64,000 nucleotides of DNA, taken from NCBI GenBank assembly GCA_964455185.1, contig CAYVUR010000001.1, positions 3,892 through 67,891 on the forward strand, read 5' to 3'. The first letter of the stretch is position 1. Every line of letters starts with the position of its first letter. Positions 25,179 to 64,000 of the stretch are shown here, piece by piece. The notes under the pieces were generated by a model. That model was not told where the DNA came from, did no database searches, and was given only the letters and a program-made list of their open reading frames with translations. The position numbers and the translations under genes were made by a program. The DNA is from an uncultured Gammaproteobacteria bacterium. Lineage in GTDB: Bacteria; Patescibacteriota; Patescibacteriia; 2-01-FULL-39-33.

Positions 25179-25191
25179 ATGAAATATTTGT

Positions 25192-25264: not shown

Positions 25265-25278
25265 ATAATATCTGGAAA

Positions 25279-25360
25279 TGCCCGAGGAGAGATTTGAACT
25301 CTCACATATTTCTATACACGATTTTGAGTCGTGCGCGTCTACCAATTCCGCCACTCGGGC
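25279..25360 (-). tRNA. tRNA-Leu (CAA), class II with a long variable arm
   Basis: GCCCGAG-TG-GCGG..CACGA-CTCAAAA-TCGTG-TATAGAAATATG-TGAGAG-TTCAAAT-CTCTC-CTCGGGC-A. Confidence 0.8.
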
Positions 25361-25381
25361 AAAGCAAATTGGTGTTTTTAT

Positions 25382-37412: not shown

Positions 37413-38321
37413 ATGGAAGAACAAAAAACAACAAATGATAACAATCTTTATAATGATAACTGGTCAAATCAAGCCTTTTTTATTGAACAAAAAAGATTGC
37501 TCCGTAAAGAAAAAATTAATTCAATAATAATTATTATAGTCGGCTTGAGTGCTTTGTTTTTTGGTTTATTTGGAATGTTAGCAAATATTTCTAATCCTTT
37601 TGCTGATATTTTAAAAATTGGCCAAGCTCAGTTAAAAGAAGAAGCAGAAAAGGAAAAAATGCAATTATTAGCATTACAAACAACCGATATTGATGGTGAT
37701 GGTTTAGTTGATTATTTAGAACTTAATAAATATGGTACCAATCCTTATTTAAAGGATAGTGATGGTGATGGAATTGATGATAGTGAGGAAATATCAAGAG
37801 GATTGGACCCTAATTGTCCTCAAGGACAACAATGTCTTAATACAAATTTTATTAATAATGTTAATAATAATAGTAGTTCTTCGGAAAATATTCCTACTTT
37901 AGTTACGGAAATTCCTTTAGAAAACGGCACTGTTGCTATTACTCCAGATTTTTTAAGACAAGTACTTATTGAAAGTGGTTTTGATAAAGAAATGCTGGCT
38001 GAAGTGCCGGATTCGGAAATTATGGCGTTGTTTCAAGAATATGTCAAAACTAATCCTGAAATAGCTAGTAAATATTTTAACACATCCGAAGGAGAACAAG
38101 TAAAAACTTCTTTGCCAGAGCCTAATGCTTCTAATGTTAATCTTTCTTCATTAGGAGTAACAAGTTTAGAAGATTTAAAAAATCTTTCAGGTAGTCAAAT
38201 TAGAACTCTAATGATACAATCTGGCGCTCCAGAAGATTTACTTAAAACAGTTTCTGATGATCAATTAAAAGAATTATTTTTGAAAAAAATAGAAGAAAAA
38301 ATTAATTCAAATAGCAATTAA
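37413..38321 (+). CDS. Secreted/membrane-anchored protein with thrombospondin-type-3/dockerin-like Ca-binding Asp repeats
   Basis: N-terminal TM IIIIIVGLSALFFGLFGMLANI, then DIDGDGLVDYLELNKYGTNPYLKDSDGDGIDDSEEI (DxDxDG repeats). It is immediately upstream of the giant protein. Confidence 0.5.
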   Translation: MEEQKTTNDNNLYNDNWSNQAFFIEQKRLLRKEKINSIIIIIVGLSALFFGLFGMLANISNPFADILKIGQAQLKEEAEKEKMQLLALQTTDIDGDGLVDYLELNKYGTNPYLKDSDGDGIDDSEEISRGLDPNCPQGQQCLNTNFINNVNNNSSSSENIPTLVTEIPLENGTVAITPDFLRQVLIESGFDKEMLAEVPDSEIMALFQEYVKTNPEIASKYFNTSEGEQVKTSLPEPNASNVNLSSLGVTSLEDLKNLSGSQIRTLMIQSGAPEDLLKTVSDDQLKELFLKKIEEKINSNSN

Positions 38322-48216: not shown

Positions 48217-51200
48217 ATGTTTTCTAGAAGAAAGAACAAAATTTTGATAAATATTGTGGCTACAATAATAATAGTCGCAATGTGTTTTGGTGTAGCTAGG
48301 CCGGTTAGAGCTGGTTGGCTGAATAATTTAGGTGCTTTTGGTGGTTTTGTTGGAACAGTTGCTGCTGGAGCAGCTATTGGAAGCTTATTTGCTATTAGTG
48401 CGCCGGTTTCTGTTCCGGTGGCTTTAATTGGTGGAACGATTTTGACTGCTGTGACTGAAGCTGGCGTCATGTATGTCATAAGTAGTAGAAAAGTTCAAGA
48501 ATCTGCTAATTCAATAGTAACTCCTATAGTTATGAATGCTGCGTTAACTGATACCTCCATTGGAACTTATGTTGCTGGTACTAACTTGCCCGAAAGTACA
48601 GGGGGAGTTTTAGAAACGTCTGCAAAAGCAATTGAGAGAGGAGTTAAAAAAGAAGATGTACAAGCGGCTATAGGAGGCATGAATTACAGTTATCAGCAAA
48701 CCGAGGCACTAAAAGCATCTAACCAGCAAATAAAAGATGATCCCAAGAATTCAACCATAGGTGATATTATTGCTCGCATGTTTGCTTGGCTTTTGTATTA
48801 CATAGCCGTAGGATTGGGTTGGGTTTTAATGTTGATTAGTTTTGTAATGCTTAAAATTGCTGTTTATAATAATTTTCTTAGAGAAGACGCAATACATTTA
48901 GGTTGGCAAATTATCAGAGATATTTGTAATAATTTTTTTATCATTTTATTACTTATTACTGCAATTAGTACTATGTTGCGTCAAGGAGACTTTAAAGATT
49001 GGCGTAGTATGTTACCTAAAATTTTAGTTGCTGCAGTAATAATTAATTTTTCTTTATTAATGTGTGGTATTTTTATTGATGTTTCACAAATTTTTACTCT
49101 TACTTTTGCTAGCCCGCTTAATTCTATTACAGGATACAATGTTATTTTAGCGGCTATGGGTATACCAAGCAGTATGCAATTAAGCAATCTTTCTTCAGAA
49201 GTAGGTACCACTGGAATTGAAAATATAGATCTAATAGCGGCTTTAATTTATGCGACAATAATAACTTTTGTTACAATAATAGTTATTACAGCAATAACAG
49301 TATTACTAGCTTATCGTATTATTATGTTATGGTTTTTAGTAATACTTTCTCCTTTACCTATTCTTTTATCTCTCTTAAAGAGAGGAGCTAGTTATGTTAA
49401 TTTATGGTGGGAAGAATTTTTTAAATATCTAATAGTAGGACCTGCAGTGATGTTTTTCTTATATTTATCCTTTATGTTTATGGGTAAAATGAATAATACA
49501 GGAACAGCTGGAAATACTTCTAATGTTTTAAATATTAATACTCAAAGTCTACCAACAGGTGCAACTATAGGTAGCGGCTCTAATGTAACTTTAACTTCAG
49601 GTAAAGATACTGTTAGTTTGTCTAATGCCGCTAGCCCTAATGGAGTCATTAATTTTTTAATTGTTATTAGTTTAATGGCCGGGTCTTTATTAATGGCTCA
49701 AAAAATTGGAACAAAAGGTTCTAAATTTGCTGGACAAAGTTTAACTTGGCTACAAAATCAAGGTAAGCGTTGGAGTGGATTTAATTTAGCTAAAAATTTA
49801 GCAAAATCAGCACCTAGAACTGTTGGCACCGCCATTGATGATAAATTGGGCCTTCGTCAAAAATTGTATGGAACAGCTTTTGCTGCTGGTGGTAAATATA
49901 TTCCTTTTGTTGGACAGGATTTAGGTAAAAGAATTGGCGTATTGGAAGAAGGAACACAGAGAAGAATTAATGCAAAATATAGTGATTTAGCTAAAGGTTA
50001 TCAAATTGATAAAATGAATGAAGAACAATTAAGAAAATTAGCTTCTAAAGGTGGATCTGCTGGAGTGGTGGCTACTCAAGCTTTAATGAAGAAAGGTTTA
50101 TTTAGAGATGATGATGAATTAAATAGAGCAAATAATATTGATATTATTAAGAAAGCTAGAGAGGCACTTAAAGGAACTGATTTAGGTAATACTTTTGATG
50201 AAAATCTTAAAAAATATAATCCTAGTTTAGCTTTTTCTACTATTTATGATGGTAAATTAGATAAATTACGTAGCGATTTAAAACTTGGAAAAATTGATAT
50301 TGATAAGTTAATGGCTGGTATGACTCCCGAGCAGATCAATAAACTCAAAGCGGATTTGGGTGGTGGCAATGGCGCTGTAGCTAAGTTTATTTTGAGTAAT
50401 TCTAGTGATATTGGTAAAACCTTAAAAGGTATGAATAAACAAAGTCGAGAATTGGTCACTCAAGAAATTGATCATAAAACTTTTGCTAAGCGCATCAATC
50501 CTGATGGTACGATTGCTGAATATGATGATGAGACTAGAAGGAAATATTTATCTTCAAAACCTGCTGATATTATGAAGATTTTTGATATGAATGACAAAAC
50601 TGAATTAGAAAAGGCTAGAAAACAATTTAGTAAGAATAGAGAGACTATTTTGAGGGAAATGGATCCAGAAGGTATGACCTCTGAATTTATTAAGAATTTT
50701 GGAGATTTATTTAATTTTAAAGAATTAGAGAAAAATTTCTCTGATCGAAGTTCTGAACATAAAACTGCTGCGACTAGAGCTTTGCAAGAACATCTTGATG
50801 CTTCACTAAAAGAGGTGAACTTTGAACAATTGGCTCAAAATTTGGCTCGAGCTATAGCCAGTGGAGATAAAGTTGCTATAGAAAAAGCTAAGAAAGAGCA
50901 AGCAGATATGGATGAATTAGTTAAGAAAAATTTATTGGCCCAAGGAAATTTATCACCATCAGTTATTAAAGCTTCTGGCTCTGATGATGCTTTAGAGAGG
51001 ATTTTGGGTAATCTTAATGGCGATGATGCTAGTAAAATTAATTGGGGTAATTTATCTGATCAAGAGAAAAATATTATATCTCAACATATTAATCCTAATG
51101 CTCTTAAATTGTTAGCAACTAGAGGAGATAATAATGAGTTGATAAGGGGAGTTCGCGATAATATTAGAACTAGAGCGAAGATAGATAATGATAATGAACA

Positions 51201-51537
51201 GATATTTAATAACGCTAAACAAAGATATAATGAAGCTAGAGGAAATCTTGAATCTTTAAGAAAAGAAATAACAGATTTAAGTAATGAGGCTGATGATGCG
51301 AAAAAAGCAGGAGATTCAATGACATATCAAAAGTTACAAAGCAAGATAAATAGATTGAAAAGTCAGGAAGCTACTTTACAAGCAAATTTATCTAAAGCGG
51401 AAAATGAATATAATCAGGCGTTAAATAATTATGCTTCTAATTTAGATGATAACAAGAATTGGAAAGAGACTGATTTGCAAAAACGAGAAAAAGAAATTAT
51501 TGGTAAAAAAAGTAAAAATAATAATAAAGAAGATTAA
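48217..51537 (+). CDS. VirB6/TrbL-like polytopic membrane protein with a ~600-aa helical cytoplasmic C-terminal extension
   Basis: The N-terminal ~500 aa hold about 8 TM helices interrupted by a large loop, the VirB6/TrbL topology. The C-terminal half is K/E-rich and predicted coiled-coil. It precedes VirB3/VirB4-like genes. Confidence 0.45.
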   Translation: MFSRRKNKILINIVATIIIVAMCFGVARPVRAGWLNNLGAFGGFVGTVAAGAAIGSLFAISAPVSVPVALIGGTILTAVTEAGVMYVISSRKVQESANSIVTPIVMNAALTDTSIGTYVAGTNLPESTGGVLETSAKAIERGVKKEDVQAAIGGMNYSYQQTEALKASNQQIKDDPKNSTIGDIIARMFAWLLYYIAVGLGWVLMLISFVMLKIAVYNNFLREDAIHLGWQIIRDICNNFFIILLLITAISTMLRQGDFKDWRSMLPKILVAAVIINFSLLMCGIFIDVSQIFTLTFASPLNSITGYNVILAAMGIPSSMQLSNLSSEVGTTGIENIDLIAALIYATIITFVTIIVITAITVLLAYRIIMLWFLVILSPLPILLSLLKRGASYVNLWWEEFFKYLIVGPAVMFFLYLSFMFMGKMNNTGTAGNTSNVLNINTQSLPTGATIGSGSNVTLTSGKDTVSLSNAASPNGVINFLIVISLMAGSLLMAQKIGTKGSKFAGQSLTWLQNQGKRWSGFNLAKNLAKSAPRTVGTAIDDKLGLRQKLYGTAFAAGGKYIPFVGQDLGKRIGVLEEGTQRRINAKYSDLAKGYQIDKMNEEQLRKLASKGGSAGVVATQALMKKGLFRDDDELNRANNIDIIKKAREALKGTDLGNTFDENLKKYNPSLAFSTIYDGKLDKLRSDLKLGKIDIDKLMAGMTPEQINKLKADLGGGNGAVAKFILSNSSDIGKTLKGMNKQSRELVTQEIDHKTFAKRINPDGTIAEYDDETRRKYLSSKPADIMKIFDMNDKTELEKARKQFSKNRETILREMDPEGMTSEFIKNFGDLFNFKELEKNFSDRSSEHKTAATRALQEHLDASLKEVNFEQLAQNLARAIASGDKVAIEKAKKEQADMDELVKKNLLAQGNLSPSVIKASGSDDALERILGNLNGDDASKINWGNLSDQEKNIISQHINPNALKLLATRGDNNELIRGVRDNIRTRAKIDNDNEQIFNNAKQRYNEARGNLESLRKEITDLSNEADDAKKAGDSMTYQKLQSKINRLKSQEATLQANLSKAENEYNQALNNYASNLDDNKNWKETDLQKREKEIIGKKSKNNNKED

Positions 51538-51544
51538 TTAATTC

Positions 51545-52963
51545 ATGGCGGAAAATAATCAAAATAAAATTCAAGATTTAGAAGAAATTAAGCAATCTAA
51601 TCCCTGGATTGTTGATTTCGGTTTATCTGATGCAGAAATAGTTGCCATTGTTAATCTTATTGGTCAAGTTATCTGGGGCGATATTGATTTGCAGGAATAT
51701 TCAGAAATGATTAAAAAAGTAATTCTTAAAGACCCTCAAATAAAGCGTCAAATTGAAATTGCCATCGCTAAAAATAGGCTTATGGCGTTTAAGGACGAGA
51801 TTGATGGAGTTGAGGATTATATTCGTTCATTAGGTATAACGGTTTTAGAAGTCAGACCGCCTCAAAAAGAAGAGAGTAGTCTTGAAGGTTTACCAGAAAT
51901 CAAATCTGATACTGCCAGATCTTCATCCGGCATGGCCTTTTCTATGTCTGATGAAAAAGAAATTCAATCAATAAAAGTTCCTGATTATGAAGAAAAAATT
52001 GATTGGGGTAGCCAAATAAAGTCTATAATTTCTCAATTTGGTTTTCGCGAATCAGATCCTGTTATTGTTAAACGTTTAGAAAATATTATTATAGCTAGAC
52101 TTAAAGATATTCGTGATGATTTAGAAACTTTTGATATTTTAACTCGATCACGTAAAATTGGAGGTATGGAATTTAGTGATACTCAAGCTGAGCAATTACT
52201 TTCTTTAATAAGAAATCAAGATTCTTTTAAGGTGGCAAAAATAGAAAATGATTTAACTTTAGCAAGTAAGCCTAAATCATCGGTAATCTCACCTAAAATA
52301 GAAATAGAAGATGGTTTACCTGTAGTTCGCTTACCGGATGATTTAATAGTTAAACCGGAATTATTAAATGAAAAAGAATTAGAAGAAGAATTAATTTTTC
52401 AAAAATCAAAAGAAACAGCTTCTAATATTGAAATCAATAATAATAAGGAGAAAGAATCTAACTTAGAAATTAAAAAAGAAGAAATTAATAAATCTAGTGA
52501 TAATAAAATTGTCACTAATTCTTTTACAACAATTACTCCTAAACCTGAGCCTTTTTTAGCATCTAAAAAAATACCATCAATTACTAATATTAAAAATTCT
52601 TCAAAACCACATCTTGATGGTATTAAAATAACTAAAACAATAATGGGGCCAATTGATGAATTAGAAGCAATGACCTTAATAGAATTTCGTCGTCTTTCTT
52701 CTGACCCTTTTGAAGCAATTAAAAAAATTCAAGAAGATATTGAGCTTATTAGTAAAGAAGGATTTGATCGGCGTAATGAAGCCATTGCCGCTTGGCATCG
52801 TAGTGAAGTTAGTAAGTTTTATCGTCTTTTAGGGCAACTTGCTATGTCAGAAGGAAAAAGTGTATCTTCAGTAATAGAAGAAAGATTAATTTCTGGCAAA
52901 CCAACTTTATCAATGAATGAATTTGAAGCGATCACAGAACTTAATAAATTAATTAGATTTTAA
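51545..52963 (+). CDS. Hypothetical soluble protein within the T4SS-like cluster
   Basis: 472 aa with no TM helices and no recognisable NTP-binding motif. It is translationally coupled to its neighbours. Confidence 0.4.
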   Translation: MAENNQNKIQDLEEIKQSNPWIVDFGLSDAEIVAIVNLIGQVIWGDIDLQEYSEMIKKVILKDPQIKRQIEIAIAKNRLMAFKDEIDGVEDYIRSLGITVLEVRPPQKEESSLEGLPEIKSDTARSSSGMAFSMSDEKEIQSIKVPDYEEKIDWGSQIKSIISQFGFRESDPVIVKRLENIIIARLKDIRDDLETFDILTRSRKIGGMEFSDTQAEQLLSLIRNQDSFKVAKIENDLTLASKPKSSVISPKIEIEDGLPVVRLPDDLIVKPELLNEKELEEELIFQKSKETASNIEINNNKEKESNLEIKKEEINKSSDNKIVTNSFTTITPKPEPFLASKKIPSITNIKNSSKPHLDGIKITKTIMGPIDELEAMTLIEFRRLSSDPFEAIKKIQEDIELISKEGFDRRNEAIAAWHRSEVSKFYRLLGQLAMSEGKSVSSVIEERLISGKPTLSMNEFEAITELNKLIRF

Positions 52964-52966
52964 ATT

Positions 52967-53416
52967 ATGCAACAAGTAGTTGTACCACAATTTTTAGATG
53001 TAGAAGATAAAATTATTGGGCCAATTACAGTACGTCAATTTATTGAATTAGTAATTGGAGCTATTTTTATCGCTATACTTTATAAATTGCTTTATTTACC
53101 TTATTTTTTAGTTGCTGGTTTTATCGTTTTTGGTATTACCATGATTATAGCTTTTGCTAAAATAAATGGGCAGGTTTTTCATATTTTTATGCTTAATTTT
53201 TTTCAGACAATGATAAATCCTAAATTAAAAATTTGGCGAAAAAGAGTAACTCTTAAAGAAATAAAAGCCGATTTATCTAAACCTAAAGAAGAAAATTTAC
53301 AATTAGTAAAAATGTCTCATCGACCAATAAGTTCTTCGCGACTTTCAGAAATCGCCTTAATTATAGATACGGGAGGAGTTTATCAAGGAGAAGAAAATAA
53401 TAATTTAATAAAATAG
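52967..53416 (+). CDS. PrgI/VirB3-like small membrane protein
   Basis: PQFLDVEDKIIGPITVRQFIELVIGAIFIAILYKL then a second TM, the PrgI-family pattern. It is immediately upstream of VirB4. Confidence 0.5.
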   Translation: MQQVVVPQFLDVEDKIIGPITVRQFIELVIGAIFIAILYKLLYLPYFLVAGFIVFGITMIIAFAKINGQVFHIFMLNFFQTMINPKLKIWRKRVTLKEIKADLSKPKEENLQLVKMSHRPISSSRLSEIALIIDTGGVYQGEENNNLIK

Positions 53417-53419
53417 TTT

Positions 53420-54100
53420 ATGGCAGGAAGAAAAGCTAACAATTCAACACCATCAACCCAAAGTTTTCTTCAAATTTCTGAAATAAAAGATGATACAATA
53501 GTAATGAAGGATGGTAGTTTGCGGGCAGTCTTATTAGTTTCAAGTATTAATTTTGCGCTTAAATCGGAAGATGAACAAAATGCAATTATTGCTGGTTATG
53601 TCAGTTTTCTTAATTCTTTAGAATCACCTTTACAAATAGTTATTCAATCACGCAAATTAGATTTAGATCAATATTTAGAGTTTCTTAAAGAAATTGAAGA
53701 AAAACAACAAAACGATTTATTAAAAATACAAATGACTGAATATCGTCAATATATTCAAGAATTGATTGAATTAGGCAATATTATGACCAAAAGATTTTAT
53801 GTTATAGTTCCTTATTCAGTTTTTGGAGAAAAAAAAAGAAGTTTTTGGCAAAGATTAAGTGATATTCTTGCTCCTGCTTCGGTGATAAATTTGGATCAAG
53901 AACGTTTTTTACAAAGACAAAAAGATTTATTTGTTATAGTTGATAGAGTTATGACTGGTTTGGCTAGTATGGGTTTACGTTCACAAATTTTGGATACTCA
54001 ATCACTAATTGAATTATTTTATAATACTTATAATCCGACAGTTTCTAGATATGAGAAATTACAAGATATTAATAAATTAATGATGGAACAAAAAATGTAA
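53420..54100 (+). CDS. VirB4-like ATPase, N-terminal fragment (split or frameshifted)
   Basis: FLQISEIKDDTIVMKDGSLRAVLLVSSINFALKSEDEQNAIIAGYVSFLNSLESPLQIVIQS resembles N-termini of Gram-positive VirB4/TraE proteins. It stops at an A6 tract (54090-54095) 4 nt before the next ORF, in a different frame. Confidence 0.5.
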   Translation: MAGRKANNSTPSTQSFLQISEIKDDTIVMKDGSLRAVLLVSSINFALKSEDEQNAIIAGYVSFLNSLESPLQIVIQSRKLDLDQYLEFLKEIEEKQQNDLLKIQMTEYRQYIQELIELGNIMTKRFYVIVPYSVFGEKKRSFWQRLSDILAPASVINLDQERFLQRQKDLFVIVDRVMTGLASMGLRSQILDTQSLIELFYNTYNPTVSRYEKLQDINKLMMEQKM

Positions 54101-54104
54101 TTTT

Positions 54105-56027
54105 ATGTTTAATCCTCAAGAAATAGAAAAAAATAATCAGTCACAACAAACTTTTGGTTATACTCCTCCACCACCTCTTAAAGGTGCTCAGAGATTAGCT
54201 GTAGAAACTAAAGAACTTGCTTTATCCAAAGAAGCTTTGGAAGAAGAAAAAATTTATCGCCGAGGAGTAGTTTCGGTTAGAGATTTAATAGCTCCCTCAG
54301 CCTTAGAAGTTAATCCTAATTATATTAAGTTGGGGGAACTTTTTGTTCGTACTATTTTTGTTTATGAATATCCTAGATATATTGCCGTAGGTTGGTTTGC
54401 TCCCATAATTAATATGGATATTACCGCAGATATTGCTATGTTTTTTTATCCAGTTAAGGCCGCGGTGATACTTAAACAGCTTAAGAAAAAGGTAGGTGTT
54501 TTAGAAGCAGGAATTATTTCTGCCGCTGAAAAAGGTGCGCCACGTGATCCTTTAGCAGAAACAGCGCTTAGAGACATGGAAAAATTACGTGATGACTTAA
54601 CTCAAGGAATAGAACATTTTTTTCAGATTTCTCTTTATGTAACTATTTATGCTAAGACTCTTGAAGAATTAGATAGAACTTCTGAAAGAATAGAAAATTT
54701 TTTTGGTTCAACGCTTATTTATTCAAGACGTGTTTTTTATCAAGCGGAACAAGGATTTAATTCTACTTTACCGATTGCATTAGATGAAATGCAAGTTTTT
54801 ATTAATATGAATTCTTCTCCAGCGGCGTCAGCTTTTCCTTTTGTTTCATCAGATCTTACTTCTGATCATGGAATTCTTTATGGGATTAATCGTCATAATA
54901 ATAGTTTAATATTATTTGATAGATTTTCTTTACAAAATGCTAACGCAGTGGTTTTTGCTACTTCTGGAGCTGGTAAATCTTATGCAATAAAACTTGAAGT
55001 GTTACGTAGTTTAATGATGGGAACAGAAGTGATAATTATTGATCCAGAACGTGAATATAATCATCTTTGTCAAGCTGTAGGAGGTACTTATATTGATATT
55101 TCACTTAATTCAGAAGGTAAGATTAATCCTTTTGATTTACCGCGTGCTGTTGGTGAAGATGCTAAAGCCGGAGATATTATTAGAAACGCAGTCATTACGG
55201 TTAAAGGTTTAGTTAGATTAATGATTGGAAACGTTACTCCTGAAGAAGATTCAATTATTGATCGAGCGCTTTTAGAAACTTATGCTAAAAAAGATATAAC
55301 TCCTGATGCTGATTTACGTTACGTTGAACCGCCGATTATGCAAGATTTTCAAGATATACTAGAAGGCATGGAGGGCGGAGAAAATATTGTTTTACGTTTA
55401 AAAAAATATACCGAAGGGACTTTTGCTGGCTTACTTAATAATCCAACTAATGTTAAACTTGATAATCAATTAGTAGTATTTTCTGTTCGAGATTTAGAAG
55501 ATGAACTTAAACCGTTAGCTATTTATACTATCGTTAATTATATTTGGAATATAGTTAGAAGCGAACTTAAGAAAAGAATTTTAGTAGTTGATGAAGCTTG
55601 GTGGTTAATGCAACGAGAAGATTCAGCTAAATTTATTTTTGCTTTAGTTAAACGTTGCCGTAAATATTATTTAGGAGTTACCACAATTACCCAAGATGTT
55701 AATGATTTTCTTACTTCTTCTTATGGACAGGCGATAGTTAATAATTCTTCAATACAATTATTGTTAAAGCAGTCACCGGCTGCAATTGATTTAGTTAAAA
55801 AAACTTTTTTACTTACTGAAGGAGAAAAGTATTTATTATTAGAATGCGGTGTTGGTGAAGGAATTTTTTTTGCTGGAGCTAAACATGTAGCGATTAAAAT
55901 TGTTGCTTCTTATTCTGAAGATCAACTTATTACTTCTGATCCGCGCCAATTATTAGAAATAGAGCGAGCTAAAAAAGAATTTGCTGAAGCTATGATGCAA
56001 GAAGAAAATATGCCTAAAAAAGAATAA
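54105..56027 (+). CDS. VirB4/TrbE-family T4SS ATPase (middle and C-terminal ATPase domains)
   Basis: Walker A FATSGAGKSYAIKLE, Walker B ILVVDEAWWLM, and upstream VirB4-family blocks (YIKLGELFVRTIFVYEYPRYIAVGW). Confidence 0.8.
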   Translation: MFNPQEIEKNNQSQQTFGYTPPPPLKGAQRLAVETKELALSKEALEEEKIYRRGVVSVRDLIAPSALEVNPNYIKLGELFVRTIFVYEYPRYIAVGWFAPIINMDITADIAMFFYPVKAAVILKQLKKKVGVLEAGIISAAEKGAPRDPLAETALRDMEKLRDDLTQGIEHFFQISLYVTIYAKTLEELDRTSERIENFFGSTLIYSRRVFYQAEQGFNSTLPIALDEMQVFINMNSSPAASAFPFVSSDLTSDHGILYGINRHNNSLILFDRFSLQNANAVVFATSGAGKSYAIKLEVLRSLMMGTEVIIIDPEREYNHLCQAVGGTYIDISLNSEGKINPFDLPRAVGEDAKAGDIIRNAVITVKGLVRLMIGNVTPEEDSIIDRALLETYAKKDITPDADLRYVEPPIMQDFQDILEGMEGGENIVLRLKKYTEGTFAGLLNNPTNVKLDNQLVVFSVRDLEDELKPLAIYTIVNYIWNIVRSELKKRILVVDEAWWLMQREDSAKFIFALVKRCRKYYLGVTTITQDVNDFLTSSYGQAIVNNSSIQLLLKQSPAAIDLVKKTFLLTEGEKYLLLECGVGEGIFFAGAKHVAIKIVASYSEDQLITSDPRQLLEIERAKKEFAEAMMQEENMPKKE

Positions 56028-56040
56028 AATAAAATATTAT

Positions 56041-56625
56041 ATGTTTATGTTAGACAATAGACAAAAAATAATTATAAGTTTATTAATCAGCGTTGCTATA
56101 TTAATAGTAGCTTTTTTTCTGTGGTTATTATTTAAGCCTAAAGAAGCTCCAATAAATTTAGTACAAACTCCAACTTCAACCATTCAAATCGGACAATCAG
56201 TAGTTGAACCCGTTGTTTTAGAACCCGCTAATCCATCTAGAATAGAAAATGAAAAACAATATCCTTTAGGGTCTAAACAGGTTGCTATGATTTTCGCTGA
56301 AAGATATTCTAGTTATTCAACTGATGAACCAATCAAAAATATTCAAGATCTTCAATCTTTAACTACGTCAGAGTTTTATTCGGCGATTATTTCTGAAGCA
56401 AAAAATAGACAATTTCCTGATATTTTTTATGGTTATTCAGCTAAAGCTCTAGCAGCTAATCTTATAGAAGTTAGCCAAACAAAAGCCAAAATAGCAGTTA
56501 ATTTACAAATAGAACAAACTATAGGTGATGGACAAAATAGTAATATTTTATATCGCACTTTAAATGTTAATTTAATTAAATTGAGAGAAGAATGGAAAGT
56601 AAATGGAGCCTCTTGGCAACAATAA
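56041..56625 (+). CDS. Bitopic membrane protein (N-terminal TM + ~150-aa extracytoplasmic domain); possibly VirB8-like
   Basis: TM IIISLLISVAILIVAFFLWLLF. The size and topology fit VirB8-type T4SS subunits, but no motif-level support. Confidence 0.3.
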   Translation: MFMLDNRQKIIISLLISVAILIVAFFLWLLFKPKEAPINLVQTPTSTIQIGQSVVEPVVLEPANPSRIENEKQYPLGSKQVAMIFAERYSSYSTDEPIKNIQDLQSLTTSEFYSAIISEAKNRQFPDIFYGYSAKALAANLIEVSQTKAKIAVNLQIEQTIGDGQNSNILYRTLNVNLIKLREEWKVNGASWQQ

Positions 56626-57251
56626 GTAATTATTTAATTGATTTAATTTTTCCTAAAATTTGTGTTTCCTGTGGCCAGCCAAATGAAAATTTGTGTAATT
56701 ATTGTAAACAATCAGTTAACCCTGTTTTTGGGACTAAATCGGTTCCTAATATTGACCAATTAATTTTTATTTGGCGTTACGATAACCAAGTAGTAAAATC
56801 ATTAATTAAATCTTTGAAATACGATTTTATTACTAGTCTTGAAAATGATTTACGATTTCTTTTTAATCAGCAAAATTATATTGAAAAAATTAGAGATTTT
56901 TGTTCTTCTGGATATTTAATACCAATTCCTTTACATAAAAAACGTGAACTTTGGCGAGGTTTTAATCAGTCAGTAATAATAGCTCAAATTATTTCAGAAA
57001 TAACTTGTTTACCAGTAAAAGATAATTTAATTAAAAGAATAATATTTACTAAACAGCAAGCTCATTTAGAACTGAATGATAGATTATTAAATTTAAAAAA
57101 TGTTTTTTTAGCAACTAAATGCTCAACTATTGATAAGACAGCGATATTAATTGATGATGTTGTAACTACGGGAGCAACTTTATCAGCTGCCGCTCAAGAA
57201 CTTAAAAGAAAAGGATTTTTATATGTTAAAGCTTTAGTTCTCGCTGCTTAA
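56592..57251 (+). CDS. comFC: Competence protein ComFC (phosphoribosyltransferase-domain, ComF family)
   Basis: N-terminal 4-Cys zinc finger (CVSCGQPNENLCNYCKQ) and the PRTase PRPP-binding motif ILIDDVVTTGATL. Confidence 0.85.
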   Translation: MESKWSLLATISNYLIDLIFPKICVSCGQPNENLCNYCKQSVNPVFGTKSVPNIDQLIFIWRYDNQVVKSLIKSLKYDFITSLENDLRFLFNQQNYIEKIRDFCSSGYLIPIPLHKKRELWRGFNQSVIIAQIISEITCLPVKDNLIKRIIFTKQQAHLELNDRLLNLKNVFLATKCSTIDKTAILIDDVVTTGATLSAAAQELKRKGFLYVKALVLAA

Positions 57252-57263
57252 TTTTAGAGACCT

Positions 57264-57292
57264 TTACAAAAACACTTTATTTATGCTAAAAT
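57264..57292 (+). promoter_or_regulatory. Candidate promoter for the tRNA-Ser pair (TTTACA-17-TAAAAT)
   Basis: TTTACA 57264-57269 and TAAAAT 57287-57292, ~38 nt upstream of tRNA-Ser. Confidence 0.45.
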
Positions 57293-57329
57293 ATGGGGGC
57301 TATGGGTAGTTTTAAAAATTTTTAATCTT

Positions 57330-57420
57330 TGGAGAGGTGGCTGAGTGGCTGAAAGCGGCGGTTTGCTAAACCGTTGAACGTCTATTTGGGCGTTCCGGGG
57401 GTTCGAATCCCCCCTTCTCC
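57330..57420 (+). tRNA. tRNA-Ser (GCT), class II long variable arm
   Basis: GGAGAGG-TG-GCT..GCGGT-TTGCTAA-ACCGT-[21-nt variable arm]-CGGGG-GTTCGAAT-CCCCC-CTTCTCC-G. Confidence 0.85.
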
Positions 57421-57438
57421 GAATATTTTGATATATTA

Positions 57439-57525
57439 AGGAGAGGTGGCAGAGTGGTTGAATGCGTCAGTCTTGAAAACTGAAGTCCCCTTAAAAGGAC
57501 CGCGAGTTCGAATCTCGCCCTCTCC
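57439..57525 (+). tRNA. tRNA-Ser (TGA), class II long variable arm
   Basis: GGAGAGG-TG-GCA..TCAGT-CTTGAAA-ACTGA-[variable arm]-GCGAG-TTCGAAT-CTCGC-CCTCTCC-G. Confidence 0.85.
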
Positions 57526-57556
57526 GCAAGAATTTTTTCAAAAATATAATAATTAT

Positions 57557-58054
57557 ATGTCAGAAAAAACAAACAACCCGGCTTTAACTGAAGCTTTATT
57601 TTATTGGCAACATCCGGATTATGTGGTTTATCACAAAAGTTTTAAATGGTATGCAATTTCTTTGATATTATTAGTTTTTGCTGTTATATGGACGATTATA
57701 GATGCCAATTATATGTTTGGTGTTTTCTTGGTTTTATTTTATTTAATACTTTTATTATTTGAAAATCGTCCTCCGGAAATGGTAGAATTTGCCATTACTC
57801 CAGAAGGAATTAAAAGTGGTAAAAAATTTCATTATTATCGTGATATTGATTGTTTTTATATTATTTATCGTGCCGAAGGAATAAAAAATCTTTATTTTGA
57901 GTTTCGTAACCCTTTAAAAGGAAGATTAGTTATTCCTCTTGATGGTCAAAATGCTGTTGCTATTAGAGATTATTTGATTAGTGTTTTGCGTGAAGATTTA
58001 GAAAGAGAAGCAGAACCATTAACTGAGCAATTACGCCGTTGGTTAAAAATATAA
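57557..58054 (+). CDS. Hypothetical small membrane protein (two TM helices)
   Basis: The track ORF 57446-58054 overlaps tRNA-Ser(TGA). The first Met after the tRNA (MSEKTNNPALTEALFYWQHPDY...) is the likely start. It has two adjacent hydrophobic helices. Confidence 0.4.
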   Translation: MSEKTNNPALTEALFYWQHPDYVVYHKSFKWYAISLILLVFAVIWTIIDANYMFGVFLVLFYLILLLFENRPPEMVEFAITPEGIKSGKKFHYYRDIDCFYIIYRAEGIKNLYFEFRNPLKGRLVIPLDGQNAVAIRDYLISVLREDLEREAEPLTEQLRRWLKI

Positions 58055-58068
58055 TATTTTTATATTAA

Positions 58069-58141
58069 GTGCCCGTAGCTCAGGGGATAGAGCGCCAGCT
58101 TGCGGAGCTGTAGGTCGCAGGTTCAATTCCTGCCGGGCACG
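58069..58141 (+). tRNA. tRNA-Arg, anticodon read as GCG
   Basis: GTGCCCG-TA-GCTC-AGGGGATA-GAGC-G-CCAGC-TTGCGGA-GCTGT-AGGTC-GCAGG-TTCAATT-CCTGC-CGGGCAC-G. G3:C70 rules out Ala. The 7-nt loop TTGCGGA places GCG at positions 34-36. Confidence 0.65.
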
Positions 58142-58155
58142 TATTAATTTTTTTC

Positions 58156-60213
58156 ATGGCTGCTTTATCGGATAAAATCGGAGAATTAAATCCGTTTGCC
58201 AAGAAATTATCAAAAAAATTACAACGTTTAGGAATTGAGACCATAGAAGATCTCATTTTTTATTATCCTTATCGTTATGAAAATTTTTCAGTGTTATCTG
58301 AAATTTCAAAATTAACAATAGGACAAGAAGCTGTTGTTTGGGGAAGATTAGAACTTATTGCTTCACGACGTAGTTTACGTCAACGTAAATATCTTACAGA
58401 AGCAGTAATTTCTGACACTTCTGGGTCAATAAAAATAATTTGGTTTAATCAACCTTGGCTAACTAAAACACTCAAACCCGGAGATCGTTTATTGGTTTAT
58501 GGAAAGATAGCGGGAGATGTTTTTAATATTTATTTTAATTCTCCTAATTGGCAAAAAGTTGATTTTAATAAAAAACCAGAACCCCTAGGAATTTTACCAG
58601 TTTATCCATTAACCGCCGGCATAACTTCTAAACAGATTTTTTCTTTAGTAGAAACAGCTTTAATAAAGTATAAAGAGTTTATTAAAGATTTTTTACCACA
58701 AAAGATAATTGAAGACTATAAACTTAAAGAATTGTTTTGGTCTATTAAACAAATACATAAACCTACTAATTTAGATAATTTATCTTTAGCGCAATATCGA
58801 CTTTCTTTTGATGAACTTTTATTTTTACAATTAAAATCACAATTATCACGACGAAAATTAAAAGCATTAAAAGCACCACAAATTAATTTTAATGAAGCAA
58901 AAACTAAAGAATTAGTTAATTCTTTGCCTTTTAATTTAACTGCTGATCAAAAAAAGTCAGCTTGGGAAATAATTAAAGATATTGGTAAAACTGAACCGAT
59001 GAACCGATTACTTGAAGGAGATGTTGGTTCTGGTAAAACTTTAGTTGCTATAATATCTATGCATGCTACTTTTGTTGCTGGTTGGCAAACTGCTTTAATG
59101 ACTCCCACAGAAATATTAGCAACCCAACATTATCAAACAATTAGAAAGGTTTTAAAATTTTCTGGCGCCAAAATTGGTTTATTAACTGCTAACAGAAAAA
59201 TTATTAATGATGTTAAGGTAAATAAAAAAGATTTTTTGCAAGCTTGTTTATTAGGTGAAATAGATATAATAATAGGAACTCATTCTTTAATACAATCAGA
59301 AATTAATTTCAAAAAATTAGCTTTAGTTATTGTTGATGAACAACATCGTTTTGGCGTTAGACAAAGACAAGAATTAAAAAATAAAGGAGAATTAACCCCT
59401 CATTTTCTATCTTTAACTGCTACGCCTATACCTCGAACTATGGCATTAATTGCTTATGGAGATTTAGATATTTCTTTAATTAAACAACCACCTCAAGGTA
59501 GATTACCAATTATTACTAAAGTTGTTTCGCCGCAACAAAGAAATATGGCTTACGATTTTATTAATAAACAGGTAGCTCGGGGTAGACAAGTTTTTGTTAT
59601 TTGTCCTTTGATTGATCCCTCTGATAAATTAGGAGTTAAATCAGTAAAAGAAGAATATATGAAGTTAGATAAAGAAGTATTTCCTCATTTTTCAGTGGGC
59701 TTGTTACATGGCCGTTTGAAGCCTTCAGAAAAGGAACAAATAATGAATGATTTTACTGCTGGAAAAATTAAAATTTTAGTAGCAACTTCCGTAATTGAGG
59801 TTGGTGTAGACGTTCCTAATGCTACTGTTATGATGATTGAAGGAGCAGAGCGATTTGGTTTAGCTCAACTACATCAATTTCGTGGACGTGTAGGAAGAGG
59901 AAAATTTCAATCTTATTGTTTTTTATTTACCAATTCTTCAGATGAAAAAACAATTAAACGTCTTAATTTTATTGCTCATAATAATGATGGTTTTTCTTTA
60001 GCAGAATATGATTTAAAATTAAGAGGCTCAGGAAATTTATATGGCGTAGAACAATCAGGATTTATTTCCGGACTAAAATTAGCTGATATTAATAATGTAG
60101 CATTAATAAAACAAGTTTCAAACGTTGCTAAAGAGTTGATTGATAAAATAAACAATTTTCCTGAATTATTAGATAAAATAGAAAAATTAGGATTAATTGA
60201 TCATTGGGAGTAA
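58156..60213 (+). CDS. recG: ATP-dependent DNA helicase RecG
   Basis: Wedge/OB N-terminal domain and helicase motifs (GDVGSGKT, DEQHRFGV, TATPIPRTMA, LHGRLK). Confidence 0.93.
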   Translation: MAALSDKIGELNPFAKKLSKKLQRLGIETIEDLIFYYPYRYENFSVLSEISKLTIGQEAVVWGRLELIASRRSLRQRKYLTEAVISDTSGSIKIIWFNQPWLTKTLKPGDRLLVYGKIAGDVFNIYFNSPNWQKVDFNKKPEPLGILPVYPLTAGITSKQIFSLVETALIKYKEFIKDFLPQKIIEDYKLKELFWSIKQIHKPTNLDNLSLAQYRLSFDELLFLQLKSQLSRRKLKALKAPQINFNEAKTKELVNSLPFNLTADQKKSAWEIIKDIGKTEPMNRLLEGDVGSGKTLVAIISMHATFVAGWQTALMTPTEILATQHYQTIRKVLKFSGAKIGLLTANRKIINDVKVNKKDFLQACLLGEIDIIIGTHSLIQSEINFKKLALVIVDEQHRFGVRQRQELKNKGELTPHFLSLTATPIPRTMALIAYGDLDISLIKQPPQGRLPIITKVVSPQQRNMAYDFINKQVARGRQVFVICPLIDPSDKLGVKSVKEEYMKLDKEVFPHFSVGLLHGRLKPSEKEQIMNDFTAGKIKILVATSVIEVGVDVPNATVMMIEGAERFGLAQLHQFRGRVGRGKFQSYCFLFTNSSDEKTIKRLNFIAHNNDGFSLAEYDLKLRGSGNLYGVEQSGFISGLKLADINNVALIKQVSNVAKELIDKINNFPELLDKIEKLGLIDHWE

Positions 60214-60223
60214 AAATATACAA

Positions 60224-61561
60224 TTATTTTAAGATATTAATTGCTTTTTTAATATTATTTAAATTTTCAATTTTTATTTTAGATTTTGAAAAAAAGTTTT
60301 TTAATTGAGGTATTAAAGCGGAAACAAAACCCATTTTTTCTGCCTCAATTATTCTTTTTTCTAGTTGTGATACTGATCTAATTTCTCCTGATAAACCTAC
60401 TTCTCCTAAGATTATAGTTTTAGCAGGTAGAGTTTTTTCTAAAAAAGCAGAAACGATAGCTAAACAAACAGCTAAATCAGCAGCAGTTTCTTTAATTTTG
60501 AAACCGCCAGCAACATTGATATAAACATCGTAATTATTAAGATTTATTTTAGAATTTTTTGATAAAACAGCTAAAAGCATTTGTAAACGATTAAGATCAA
60601 ATCCATTAGCTCGGCGTTGCGGATAGCCAAAAAAAGTTTTAGCTGTTAACGCTTGAATTTCTATAAGAAATGGTCTGCTTCCTTCTATAACTATAGTAGT
60701 GGCTATTCCGCATCTATTAATATCTAATTCTTTATCTATAAAAGCTTGGCTAGGATTATTAATTTCTAATAGTCCTGTTGTAGACATTTCAAAAACGCCA
60801 ATTTCGCCAGTTGATCCAAAACGATTTTTTACTGATCTAAGTATACGATAAAAATTATTATTATCATTTTCTAAATAGAGTACAACGTCAACTAAATGTT
60901 CTAAAGTTTTAGGTCCAGCCACATACCCATCTTTAGTAACATGTCCAATAACTAAAATTGGTATGTTTTGAGTTTTAGCTAAGCTTATTAATTTAGTTGT
61001 ACAAGCAGTTATTTGTGATACACTCCCAACTGAACCAGAAACTTCTTGGGAGTAGATTGTTTGTATTGAATCTATAATTAAAAATTGAGGTTTAATTTTA
61101 TTAGTTGTAGCTATTATTTTATCAATATCAGTTTGTGCTAAAAAATTTATTTTTTTAGTATCAATTCCTAATCTAATTACTCGAGAAGCAACTTGTGAAG
61201 CAGACTCTTCTCCTGAAACATAAAGAGCATTGTTTAAGTTTTGAATTATTTGTAGAGCTAAAGTAGATTTACCAATTCCCGGATCTCCGCCAAGTAAAAT
61301 AAAAGATCCTAAAACTATACCCCCACCAAGAACTCGGTCAACTTCTTTTATTTTAGTGGTTAAGCGAAAATTTTCTGTTTCAGTTAAAGAAGCTAAATTA
61401 ATTGGAGTTTCTGGTGAGATTAAATTTTTAGTTTTAGGTTTTGTAGAAATAATTTCTTCATTAAGAGTTCCCCAAGAACCACATTCTAAACAGCGTCCTT
61501 GCCATTTAAGATATTGAGCGCCACATTTAGAGCAGAAAAAAATAGTTTGATTATTTTTCAT
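60224..61561 (-). CDS. radA: DNA repair protein RadA/Sms
   Basis: N-terminal C4 zinc finger (CSKCGAQYLKWQGRCLECGSWGT), RecA-like Walker A GDPGIGKST, a KNRFG motif and a Lon-like C-terminal domain. Confidence 0.93.
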   Translation of the reverse strand: MKNNQTIFFCSKCGAQYLKWQGRCLECGSWGTLNEEIISTKPKTKNLISPETPINLASLTETENFRLTTKIKEVDRVLGGGIVLGSFILLGGDPGIGKSTLALQIIQNLNNALYVSGEESASQVASRVIRLGIDTKKINFLAQTDIDKIIATTNKIKPQFLIIDSIQTIYSQEVSGSVGSVSQITACTTKLISLAKTQNIPILVIGHVTKDGYVAGPKTLEHLVDVVLYLENDNNNFYRILRSVKNRFGSTGEIGVFEMSTTGLLEINNPSQAFIDKELDINRCGIATTIVIEGSRPFLIEIQALTAKTFFGYPQRRANGFDLNRLQMLLAVLSKNSKINLNNYDVYINVAGGFKIKETAADLAVCLAIVSAFLEKTLPAKTIILGEVGLSGEIRSVSQLEKRIIEAEKMGFVSALIPQLKNFFSKSKIKIENLNNIKKAINILK

Positions 61562-61568
61562 GAAATTA

Positions 61569-62423: not shown

Positions 62424-62426
62424 ATT

Positions 62427-63482
62427 TTATTGACAATTAACCCCAGCTTGTTCTATTAATTTATCATTTCCCTCAGCTTCACTAGCCGCCATAATATCAG
62501 CATTCATTTGGGGTCTACCTGTTTTTTGTAACTGAATATAATATTGGCTGTTTAATATTTCTTTTCCAGCTTGTTCAAAATTATTTTCTCTAATAGCTGT
62601 CCACATATTATTGAAATTATTAAGTGAGGCTCCTCCCATATTATAAGCCATATCAGTTAGAACAACTTGTCTTCCAGCTGAAAGATTATCAAAATTGACT
62701 CCATGTTCGCTAGCTATTTCTCTAGCTTGATTTTGATATTTTTCGTAATCACTTGCTAGAATTTTTCTTGCTTCCTCTTCTGTGCCATTAAAAGTTTCTC
62801 CTGGCTGTATTTGATGTCCAAAATAAATATCTTGAGTGTCTGTTTGGATTGGGTCAGTATAAGGAGTAGTGCTATAACCTTCATGAGAAGCAATATAGGC
62901 CATGCCATAATTTCTCTCTCCTTTATCATTTTGTGGACAAGGTACTTTAGGTCCATTATTTTTATTTTCTGGCGTGGATTGTCCTAATTGACCATTAGTT
63001 GGAGTTGTTTGGGATAAAGAATTGTAATTATTACCTTTACTATAACCTTGACTCATCACATCATAATTACTCGTGACTTGAATATCTTTTATCTCTGGCA
63101 TATTAATATTAGTCAAAGAAGGATTAATTAAACTAATAATTAAATAAGAACCAAAAGCTAATACTAACCCAGTAACAGCAGAAAAAATAGTATCTTGAGC
63201 ATCACTAATTTGTTTAGGGTCACCTCTAGAAGCCAACCATTTAAAGCCGCCCCACATTATTATAATAGTAGCAATAATGCCAACTGTTCCCAGTAAAAGA
63301 TTGTACCAAGCTTTAAAATAATCTCCTAATAATGAACCCTTAACTTGTCCACCAGTAACATTGCCAACAGGAACATTGAGTTGAATTGAAATATCGTTAT
63401 AATTGTTGTCAGCAGCTAACACTCTTAATAGTGGTGGAATTAATAATAACAAAGTAATTAATACAAAAAATATTTTTTTCAT
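62427..63482 (-). CDS. Pilin-like (VirB2/TrbC-topology) membrane module fused to a GH24 phage-type lysozyme (muramidase)
   Basis: The N-terminal ~125 aa are identical to the 61569-62423 paralog. The C-terminal domain aligns with T4/P22 lysozymes: catalytic IASHEGYSTTPYTDP..IYFGHQ (E...D...T block), VVLTDMAYNMGGASL and NNFEQAGKEILNSQYY blocks. Confidence 0.65.
   Translation of the reverse strand: MKKIFFVLITLLLLIPPLLRVLAADNNYNDISIQLNVPVGNVTGGQVKGSLLGDYFKAWYNLLLGTVGIIATIIIMWGGFKWLASRGDPKQISDAQDTIFSAVTGLVLAFGSYLIISLINPSLTNINMPEIKDIQVTSNYDVMSQGYSKGNNYNSLSQTTPTNGQLGQSTPENKNNGPKVPCPQNDKGERNYGMAYIASHEGYSTTPYTDPIQTDTQDIYFGHQIQPGETFNGTEEEARKILASDYEKYQNQAREIASEHGVNFDNLSAGRQVVLTDMAYNMGGASLNNFNNMWTAIRENNFEQAGKEILNSQYYIQLQKTGRPQMNADIMAASEAEGNDKLIEQAGVNCQ
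63050..63412 (-). repeat. Copy B of the ~365-nt perfect direct repeat
   Basis: See copy A. It is identical across the signal-peptide-proximal to linker-coding region. Confidence 0.8.
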
Positions 63483-63492
63483 AGATAGTTTA

Positions 63493-64000
63493 TTATAAAG
63501 GTAGATTTATTTGATAAATTCTATTATCGTTTTTTTCTGAAAAAAAGATTTTTCCCGGATTAGAATTTGAATACATAATATTTTCTATTGTTTTAGTGCC
63601 TTGTGGCTTAGCTATCATTTTCATATCTCCAGTTGCCAGATCTATTAGCCAAATATCATCTTGTACTTTATCAACCTCAGATCTATTAAGTCCAGCTCCA
63701 ATTGGCATTTCTTCTGGTACGCCGCAAAAAACAAAACGATCTTCTGCAAAAGTACATTTATCAACAAAAGTTTTGAGTGGTATAGGACTTCTGAAAGCTC
63801 CAATATTTTCTCCTGAAGCCGCTGAAATCCACAGAGATGGGCGATAATAATCATTTACATCATAAGTGCTATAAAGCATATAATTTCCTGAGGGTGACCA
63901 TTTTCCTGCAAACCCTCTACCTTGAACAATCATTGATTTAAAATTTTCTTTGTTTTGTCCAATAAAATAAACTTCTGAACGAGAGCTATCTTTGCCTTCA
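63493..64000 (-). CDS. TolB-like beta-propeller (PD40/WD40-like repeat) protein, C-terminal part; the ORF runs off the window end
   Basis: GKWSPSGNYMLYSTYDVN.. and ..DDIWLIDLATGDMKMI.. resemble TolB/PD40 blades. The reading frame stays open upstream of the track's Met to position 64000. Confidence 0.45.
   Translation of the reverse strand, partial: EGKDSSRSEVYFIGQNKENFKSMIVQGRGFAGKWSPSGNYMLYSTYDVNDYYRPSLWISAASGENIGAFRSPIPLKTFVDKCTFAEDRFVFCGVPEEMPIGAGLNRSEVDKVQDDIWLIDLATGDMKMIAKPQGTKTIENIMYSNSNPGKIFFSEKNDNRIYQINLPL

Follow-up and report, generated by a model that had tools for sequence, protein, structure and literature searches.

A relaxase-less, monoderm-type type IV secretion locus ending in comF in a probable ABY1-class member of the Patescibacteria, and its possible role in DNA import

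What does a type IV secretion system (T4SS) carry, and in which direction, when no relaxase accompanies it and its operon-like array ends in comF? The question is raised by a 64-kb stretch of patescibacterial DNA (the window), in which an initial annotation described a contiguous, same-strand cluster of seven genes ending in comFC and read it as a Gram-positive-type, T4SS-like cluster with a plausible role in DNA import rather than in conjugation or effector secretion. All seven open reading frames (ORFs) were located at the positions assigned to them, on the plus strand, with comF last (Table 1). The region is very probably a native, vertically inherited T4SS of an ABY1-class (Buchananbacteria-like) member of the Patescibacteria, or candidate phyla radiation (CPR), belonging to the published Patescibacteria clade of MPF_FATA descent. 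The system is relaxase-less, monoderm-type (MPF_FATA-related) and chromosomal; it is not a conjugative element. As to its cargo, the leading guess, a tentative one, is that the machine takes up material from the host, DNA included. This kind of locus, its comF, recG and radA neighbours and the import hypothesis have already been published (Quinonero-Coronel et al., 2025; PMC12102498).

Relatives were sampled as one genome per GTDB species. VirB4 matched 588 stretches, the best 80 of which were analysed as loci; these 80 share 71-94% VirB4 identity with the window and come from genomes named Buchananbacteria, Falkowbacteria or Parcubacteria, the first two of which are placed in class ABY1 (Table S1 of PMC12102498). 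The order VirB6-like, U472, PrgI, TrsD, VirB4, VirB8-like is held in essentially all 80 species-level loci. Median identity in the same loci is 75% for VirB4, 52% for RadA and 50% for RecG, a comparison in which selection by VirB4 identity biases the VirB4 value upward.

The motor is identified unambiguously by its profile matches. VirB4 is a CD1110-family conjugal transfer ATPase of the MPF_FATA-related Patescibacteria clade, a class assignment made by profile and nearest homologues; it has thousands of close homologues, and the nearest are all from Patescibacteria. A match to the CedB profile (E 1.8e-11) lies far below the VirB4 matches. The VirB4 of the annotation was a split one, which is correct because the 226-residue ORF upstream aligns with the N-terminal region of VirB4 profiles and no further (positions 97-233 of VirB4_plasma, 2-119 of CD1110) and the alignment of the 640-residue protein begins at CD1110 position 153; the two ORFs answer to the known TrsD + VirB4 pair. 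The TrsD-like gene ends 4 nucleotides (nt) before virB4, and its family is found in 78 related loci. Many distant VirB4 representatives are 790-1260 residues long, the query aligning from about residue 230; judging by these alignments, we read them as unsplit TrsD + VirB4 versions.

The remaining core proteins were identified by different kinds of evidence. The PrgI/VirB3-like call holds: the match is borderline in the window sequence taken alone (Table 1), the family is kept in 72 related loci, and the copy in a distant locus (L083) scores 33.7 bits. The bitopic, VirB8-sized protein of the annotation has a transmembrane (TM) helix and an NTF2-like fold that matches PrgL, TraH, TraM and TcpC and is structurally closest to VirB8 proteins. 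By sequence, Pfam returned only scattered NTF2-clan noise and a profile search of PDB sequences nothing meaningful, so that the identity comes from the fold comparison, which resolved what sequence profiles could not. The VirB6/TrbL-like call with a long tail stands in part. The topology agrees, with more than five TM segments followed by a hydrophilic tail of about 600 residues giving coiled-coil matches only, and corresponds to the "extended VirB6" type of a recent review (FEMS review, 2025; PMC12857230). Sub-threshold matches that agree with one another point to the monoderm conjugation membrane families Mbov_0396 (E 3.4e-5 in the window, at best 5.6e-10 among relatives), MMCAP2_0566, pLS20_p028 and CD3337/EF1877, but Pfam TrbL/VirB6 gave no match. 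The protein is conserved in 40 related loci. U472, the 472-residue soluble protein encoded next, is predicted with high confidence to fold as three separate small helical bundles (residues 10-100, 150-235 and 365-472), the linkers between them being disordered and of low complexity; its homologues found are all annotated as hypothetical, and those named by organism come from Patescibacteria or Buchananbacteria. U472 is a conserved member of the locus and a family-specific T4SS component. VirB4, the separate TrsD, VirB3/PrgI, the extended VirB6-like and the VirB8-like protein could together form a cytoplasmic-membrane translocon.

From the VirB6-like to the VirB8-like gene the gaps measure 7, 3, 3, 4 and 13 nt; the genes for the VirB8-like protein and ComF, at the end of the array, overlap by 34 nt. 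Upstream, 22 nt separate the VirB6-like gene from the end of a giant ORF, which itself starts 6 nt after a 302-residue TSP3-repeat ORF with which the array may begin. The C-terminal part of the giant protein is encoded directly upstream of the VirB6-like gene in 26 related loci; the protein is a conserved part of the locus and, as had been suggested for this Cys-rich neighbour, a candidate adhesin or host-contact component.

Table 1. Features of the T4SS locus and its surroundings. Positions are those of the window, except for the genes of relatives in the last row, which are given by locus.
Feature	Position	Strand	Properties and evidence
FtsK	9160-11919		4TM, alpha, motor and gamma domains; complete chromosome-segregation FtsK
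TSP3-repeat protein, 302 residues, membrane-anchored	37413..38321	+	PF18884 E 4e-8; one TM segment at residues 33-60
Giant secreted protein, 3288 residues	38328..48194	+	signal peptide; 95 Cys; one CBM_4_9 domain
Extended VirB6-like polytopic protein	48217..51537	+	TM at about residues 6-500; coiled-coil cytoplasmic tail, residues 500-1106
U472, 472 residues	51545..52963	+	soluble; three small helical-bundle domains, disordered linkers
PrgI/VirB3-like small membrane protein	52967..53416	+	PF12666 27.7 bits (gathering score 27.0); TM hairpin
TrsD-like protein, 226 residues	53420..54100	+	VirB4_plasma E 8.8e-12; TrsD/TraD E 2e-9; PF26593 TraC-like
VirB4 ATPase, 640 residues	54105..56027	+	NCBIfam NF045971 "VirB4-like, CD1110 family", 355.7 bits (cut-off 325), E 5e-106
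VirB8-like bitopic protein, 194 residues	56041..56625	+	N-terminal TM helix and NTF2-like domain; fold comparison
ComFC (ComF family)	56592..57251	+	last gene of array; TIGR00201 E 2.8e-27, profile positions 1-189 of 190
tRNA-Ser(gct)	57330-57422	+	
tRNA-Ser(tga)	57440-57527	+	
U165, two-TM protein, 165 residues	57557..58054	+	probable start; adjoins recG; in 34 related loci
tRNA-Arg(gcg)	58069-58141	+	precedes recG
recG	58156..60213	+	conserved neighbour
radA	60224..61561	-	last gene of minus-strand array; starts 7 nt after pilin-module gene
VirB2-like pilin-module protein, 284 residues	61569..62423	-	PF18895 31.3 bits (gathering score 26.6)
VirB2-like pilin module with phage-lysozyme domain	62427..63482	-	PF18895 30.5 bits, PF00959 31.2 bits, both above gathering scores
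U414, membrane-anchored	63493..64000	-	cut by window end; 414 residues in L001
DsbA-like genes of relatives	L023:4172-4915; L028:3752-4513; L032:12685-13464; L044:12509-13276; similar		

ComF has the features of a standard ComFC, i.e., a four-Cys zinc ribbon (CVSC...CNYC) and a C-terminal phosphoribosyltransferase-type domain (ILIDDVVTTG motif), and on these motifs the call is firm. Its TIGR00201 score falls below the curated equivalog cut-off, its DZR_2 and Pribosyltran matches in Pfam are slightly under the gathering scores, and a search against PDB sequences gave no match. The comF frame opens within the VirB8-like gene (hence the 34-nt overlap), at an ATG preceded by a GAGAGAAGA Shine-Dalgarno-like motif. 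Three tRNA genes separate comF from recG, the two tRNA-Ser genes putatively ending the T4SS-comF transcription unit. A promoter-like site is present at 57263-57292, and promoter and terminator scans scored no better than shuffled sequence. Between the tRNA genes, a mechanically called ORF of 202 residues (57446-58054) begins inside tRNA-Ser(tga), i.e., by read-through of the tRNA gene, and the true protein, U165, probably starts at the ATG at 57557. U165 has no family match in profile searches and always sits beside recG in the related loci; it is counted here as a neighbour of the T4SS only, not as a part of it.

Beyond recG, a second array runs on the minus strand in the order U414-pilin-pilin-radA, with gaps of 10, 3 and 7 nt. 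Its two pilin-hydrolase-type genes, past radA, had been missed by the initial annotation. The pilin modules, which make up the N-terminal halves of the two proteins, are encoded by a 300-nt direct repeat (61956-62255 and 63048-63347) that is 100% identical; published Patescibacteria pilin arrays are reported to reach at most 54% identity, and against that figure the two copies seem to be the product of recent duplication or homogenisation. The C-terminal domain of the 284-residue protein carries an SRHAHGTAADF...CWHID motif, gave no match in Pfam or in a PDB sequence search and is possibly an M15/LAS-type peptidase, a guess supported by homologues only, as relatives' pilin-module proteins of the same array bear VanY or M15_3 domains. 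In the relatives these proteins (in loci L004, L010, L011, L013, L014, L034, L041, L043, L045, L052, L055, L058, L060, L073, L076, L078, L080 and L081) are 277-705 residues long, PF18895 being found in 30 of 32, and the attached domains are SLT (4), VanY (3), Peptidase_M15_3, lysozyme, GDSL lipase and Peptidase_C39_2. Such a fusion of VirB1-type cell-wall hydrolase function to a pilin module, predicted from domain matches, may supply the "missing VirB1" of the literature. U414, possibly a beta-propeller, lies between or beside pilin genes in 16 relatives. The gene for radA follows pilin-module genes directly in 14 relatives, mostly with gaps of at most 17 nt; this is a second junction of T4SS and recombination genes besides that of the VirB8-like gene and comF.

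How tightly is comF tied to the T4SS? A link between VirB4 and comFC had been proposed, and the loci informative on it, 59 in number, extend 2.5 kb or more past virB4. In 31 of these 59 ABY1 species comF lies directly behind the VirB8-like gene; with shorter loci included the adjacent pairs number 37, of which 20 have overlapping frames. In most other loci pilin-module genes (in some, a DsbA-like gene) follow the VirB8-like gene, and then radA, with recG, U165 and comF on the opposite strand. The comF-U165-recG/radA-pilin-pilin block (window 56592-63493) is thus found either way round with respect to the T4SS core (L023, L028, L031-L035, L041, L043, L044 and others), and a single inversion, with breakpoints between the VirB8-like gene and comF and between pilin and U414, interconverts the two layouts. 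Whichever way the block lies, U165 remains next to recG, and radA directly follows pilin-module genes. After inversion comF was traced in L044 and L067 only, where it is about 8 kb away, directly behind the U414 homologue. The inversion accounts for loci with pilin-module genes after the VirB8-like gene; those of the DsbA type are not fully explained. Strict adjacency of comF to the VirB8-like gene is therefore not conserved, but membership of the neighbourhood is. Block orientation changes at least five times on a rough neighbour-joining tree of VirB4, and the relatedness of the sampled genomes means that these are a handful of events, not 59 independent observations. Inverted repeats, which would be a sign of programmed inversion, were sought at both breakpoints in the window, and nothing but AT-rich chance matches came up.

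Outside ABY1 the linkage was assessed in a single locus (n = 1; L083, from a metagenome scan with a distant VirB4, 44% identical) and otherwise from the literature. There PrgI-TrsD-VirB4 lie among housekeeping genes, with no comF, recG or radA within 10 kb of the T4SS. Quinonero-Coronel et al. (2025) likewise describe co-location of comF, recG and radA with the T4SS as specific to ABY1.

The window is part of a 440-kb metagenomic contig, and the surroundings of the array are those of a chromosome. GC content and GC skew are uniform and do not set the array apart from the rest of the window, and the 48 kb upstream and 7-9 kb downstream hold only housekeeping and T4SS genes, the former including rpoB/C, ftsK, recA, efp, ssb with rpsF, rplT, infC, smpB, parAB, relA/spoT, topA-dprA, pth, der and ksgA. 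Among window ORFs of at least 90 residues scanned against profile families, the scope of all gene negatives for the window, no relaxase, VirD4/TcpA coupling protein or integrase family matched, which bears out the annotation as to relaxase and VirD4; VirB7, VirB9 and VirB10 families gave no match, and the components present are of monoderm type. The only FtsK-family protein is a full-length FtsK with the gamma domain. Two further window proteins were looked up by exact sequence, and no record of either turned up. An enrichment in transformation and recombination genes had also been pointed out, and profile searches confirm dprA, topA, recA, ssb, radA and recG, but dprA-topA and rpsF-ssb are ordinary housekeeping gene pairs. 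The gene ksgA lies immediately upstream of the array, and a tRNA-Met/Met/Leu cluster (25106-25361, minus strand) and parA-parB (25501-27160, plus strand) about 21 kb upstream of the T4SS. These neighbours agree with the origin-proximal, housekeeping placement of Patescibacteria T4SS loci described in the literature.

In the flanks of the relatives, a census of 120 other ORFs found S-adenosylmethionine synthetase, S-adenosylhomocysteine hydrolase, DsbA-like proteins and a few serine recombinases; its 25 most frequent families include neither relaxases nor coupling proteins. Genes for the synthetase, the hydrolase and a PfkB kinase are found repeatedly close to the T4SS, in some 8-9 relatives, and the large serine recombinases, at 3 of 120 ORFs, hint at occasional mobile insertions beside the locus. 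DSBA/Thioredoxin_4 matches number 9 of 120; a subset of the relatives carries, between radA and the VirB8-like gene, a gene for a membrane-anchored protein of the DsbA/thioredoxin type with a CxxC motif. The window cluster has no DsbA-like gene; in the relatives it may be linked to the Cys-rich secreted proteins of the locus.

Conjugative MPF_FATA systems, e.g., TrsC-TrsD-TrsE...TraH/TraM of pGO1/pIP501, PrgH-PrgI-PrgJ-PrgK-PrgL of pCF10 and CD1110 of CTn2, are alike in several respects, and the pCF10 order PrgH-I-J-(K)-L is collinear with VirB6-VirB3-(TrsD)-VirB4-VirB8 of the window. The VirB4 score above the CD1110 cut-off and the VirB8-like fold add to the likeness, and the Gram-positive type of the system was rightly recognised. 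Unlike them, the window locus comes without relaxase, coupling protein, oriT context or mobile element, and it has VirB2-like pilin modules, absent from Gram-positive systems, as well as U472 and the giant adhesin-like protein. The ComB system of Helicobacter pylori, the precedent invoked by the annotation, is a T4SS without relaxase or VirD4 that works in transformation together with ComEC, ComF and DprA. The window shares with it the lack of relaxase and VirD4; ComB, however, is a diderm system (VirB2-4/6-10) whose role is passage across the outer membrane, whereas the cells of the window are monoderm-like, VirB7, VirB9 and VirB10 families gave no match in the window, and VirB4 belongs to another clade. 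The Ced system of the Sulfolobales (CedA/CedB) imports DNA between cells with a VirB4/HerA-like ATPase, to which the CedB match in the window is a weak likeness; it is archaeal, and no CedA-like component was identified in the window.

The closest counterpart is the monophyletic Patescibacteria VirB4 clade nested in MPF_FATA, found in 2,407 of 3,035 genomes and accompanied by TrsD, PrgI/VirB3, VirB6 and VirB2-like pilins (Quinonero-Coronel et al., 2025). The window locus shares with it the MPF_FATA-related VirB4, the separate TrsD, PrgI/VirB3 and VirB2-like pilins, with a putative VirB6-like protein, and also a VirB8 homologue (almost confined to ABY1 in that study), the absence of a relaxase, the chromosomal site, a nearby ksgA and comF/recG/radA; against the available part of the account, nothing essential differs. 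Beyond it go the frame overlap of the VirB8-like gene and comF, the position of radA behind pilin-module genes, the inversion of the comF-to-pilin block, the pilin-hydrolase fusions and the conservation of U472, U414 and the giant proteins. The import idea of the initial annotation is likewise a published hypothesis, the same study having proposed import of DNA or other macromolecules, with Ced cited as precedent.

Genetics is available for a single T4SS of this kind, that of Southlakia epibionticum ML1 (SEML1_0006-0019; Wang et al., 2023, Cell; PMC10633639), which likewise is monoderm-type, has pilin genes and lacks a coupling protein and relaxase in the cluster. Its T4SS genes, those for the pilins among them, proved essential to epibiotic growth; the genes for ComEC, ComF and DprA do not count as fitness genes there, and transformation needs ComEC (Wang et al., 2023). 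Peptidase and lysozyme homologues near its virB4 (PMC12102498) may be compared with the lysozyme fusion of the window. The species differs in belonging to class Saccharimonadia and in carrying an array of six free pilins where the window has two fusions of pilin and hydrolase. A structural homologue of VirB8 was not detected there (PMC12102498), and a comF/recG/radA neighbourhood is not reported for its cluster. No later functional study of a Patescibacteria T4SS was found in the literature searched.

Could the locus be a dedicated DNA-import machine of the ComB or Ced kind? The T4SS would pull environmental or host DNA across the envelope, ComFC, co-translated at the membrane, would pass single strands to DprA/RecA, and RadA and RecG would finish recombination or feed nucleotide salvage. 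In favour speak the embedding of comF in an operon-like array, with overlapping frames in more than half of the adjacent cases, radA directly behind the pilin-module genes at very short gaps, and the flanking of comF, recG and radA on both sides by T4SS genes in the window. The failure to find a relaxase or coupling protein among the scanned window ORFs and in the flank census makes DNA export unlikely, and importing T4SSs have precedent, the CedB similarity being weak; the same proposal stands in PMC12102498. Set against this, the S. epibionticum T4SS is essential where ComEC, ComF and DprA are not and transformation runs through ComEC, and T4SS essentiality cannot stem from interaction with ComEC (FEMS review, 2025; PMC12857230). 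The monoderm-like cells lack the outer membrane that ComB serves to cross, and in CPR genomes type IV pili and ComEC are generally present for uptake (Wang et al., 2023). The comF linkage is specific to ABY1, and about half of the ABY1 species sampled have lost the adjacency through inversion, while dprA-topA and rpsF-ssb carry no special weight as housekeeping pairs. A machine dedicated to DNA is accordingly rather doubtful. Of the earlier proposal, the denial of conjugation stands, but ComB-like uptake is not established given adjacency in 31 of 59 species and the Saccharibacteria genetics; a role as a dedicated competence apparatus is hypothetical.

Export of proteins toward the host is another explanation, and about as doubtful a one: the T4SS would secrete or display effectors, the pilin-tethered hydrolases among them, by which the cell would attach itself to the host, break into it and exploit it, and comF, recG and radA would be unrelated neighbours. 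Export or an alternative role was inferred for S. epibionticum from the missing coupling protein and relaxase (Wang et al., 2023). The variety of hydrolase domains fused to pilin modules in relatives (SLT, VanY/M15, lysozyme, GDSL, C39) suits such a role, as do the DsbA-like gene after the VirB8-like gene in several relatives and the Cys-rich giant protein. Yet no coupling protein that would recruit cytoplasmic substrates was found in the window scans or the flank census, the hydrolase fusions and the giant protein bear hydrophobic N-terminal segments resembling signal peptides and may not need the T4SS for export, and the repeated operon positions of comF and radA are left unexplained. A mobile MPF_FATA T4SS, intact or as a remnant, with relaxase and coupling protein outside the window, would fit the conjugative-transposon family of the best VirB4 match (CD1110) and the few serine recombinases in relatives' flanks, and is highly improbable in view of the purely housekeeping and T4SS surroundings, the same locus in the same context in 80 distinct species (588 species-level matches in all), the native base composition with no integrase in the window, an FtsK that is a chromosome-segregation enzyme and not a coupling protein, and the published count of Patescibacteria VirB4 genes, of which just 15 in 2,474 have a relaxase close by (PMC12102498).

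The mode of action can be sketched as follows: the machine would work at contact with a host cell; the giant secreted protein would bind the host, the pilin-tethered hydrolases would open a path through peptidoglycan, and the VirB4/TrsD motor would drive macromolecule transfer via the VirB3/6/8 channel. As to what is moved and which way, uptake of host material with DNA among the cargoes is the tentatively preferred reading. In ABY1, the position of comF behind the VirB8-like gene and of radA behind the pilin-module genes suggests that both pairs are probably co-transcribed, in which case the proteins that handle single-strand DNA would be produced along with the T4SS. DNA import is plausible, at low confidence, because comF overlaps the VirB8-like gene, radA follows the pilin-module genes and, after inversion, comF again sits beside T4SS-associated genes. 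A bolder and less likely version would make the ABY1 T4SS a contact-dependent "reverse conjugation" importer, in which hydrolases and adhesin would breach the wall, VirB4/TrsD would pull host DNA, and ComFC, translationally coupled to the VirB8-like subunit, would join RadA and RecG in processing it for recombination or nucleotide salvage.

Several points weigh against the explanation as a whole or, more narrowly, against DNA as a cargo. Compact genomes often overlap functionally unrelated genes. The identity of the VirB6-like protein depends on sub-threshold matches and topology. The comF linkage, restricted to ABY1 (L083; PMC12102498), is broken by inversion in about 45% of sampled species. 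The genetics for this kind of T4SS is confined to S. epibionticum, a member of the Saccharimonadia and not of ABY1, and there the T4SS is essential and ComEC, ComF and DprA dispensable (PMC10633639; PMC12857230).

Few machines have survived the extreme genome reduction of Patescibacteria, and the T4SS is among them; in the sole tractable species it is essential for host-dependent life. The ABY1 layout, with comF ending the core operon and radA following the pilin-module genes, is the strongest genomic hint of a DNA cargo, and ABY1 loci like that of the window are good material for testing the published import hypothesis. If true, a reverse-conjugation importer would be the monoderm bacterial counterpart of ComB and Ced.

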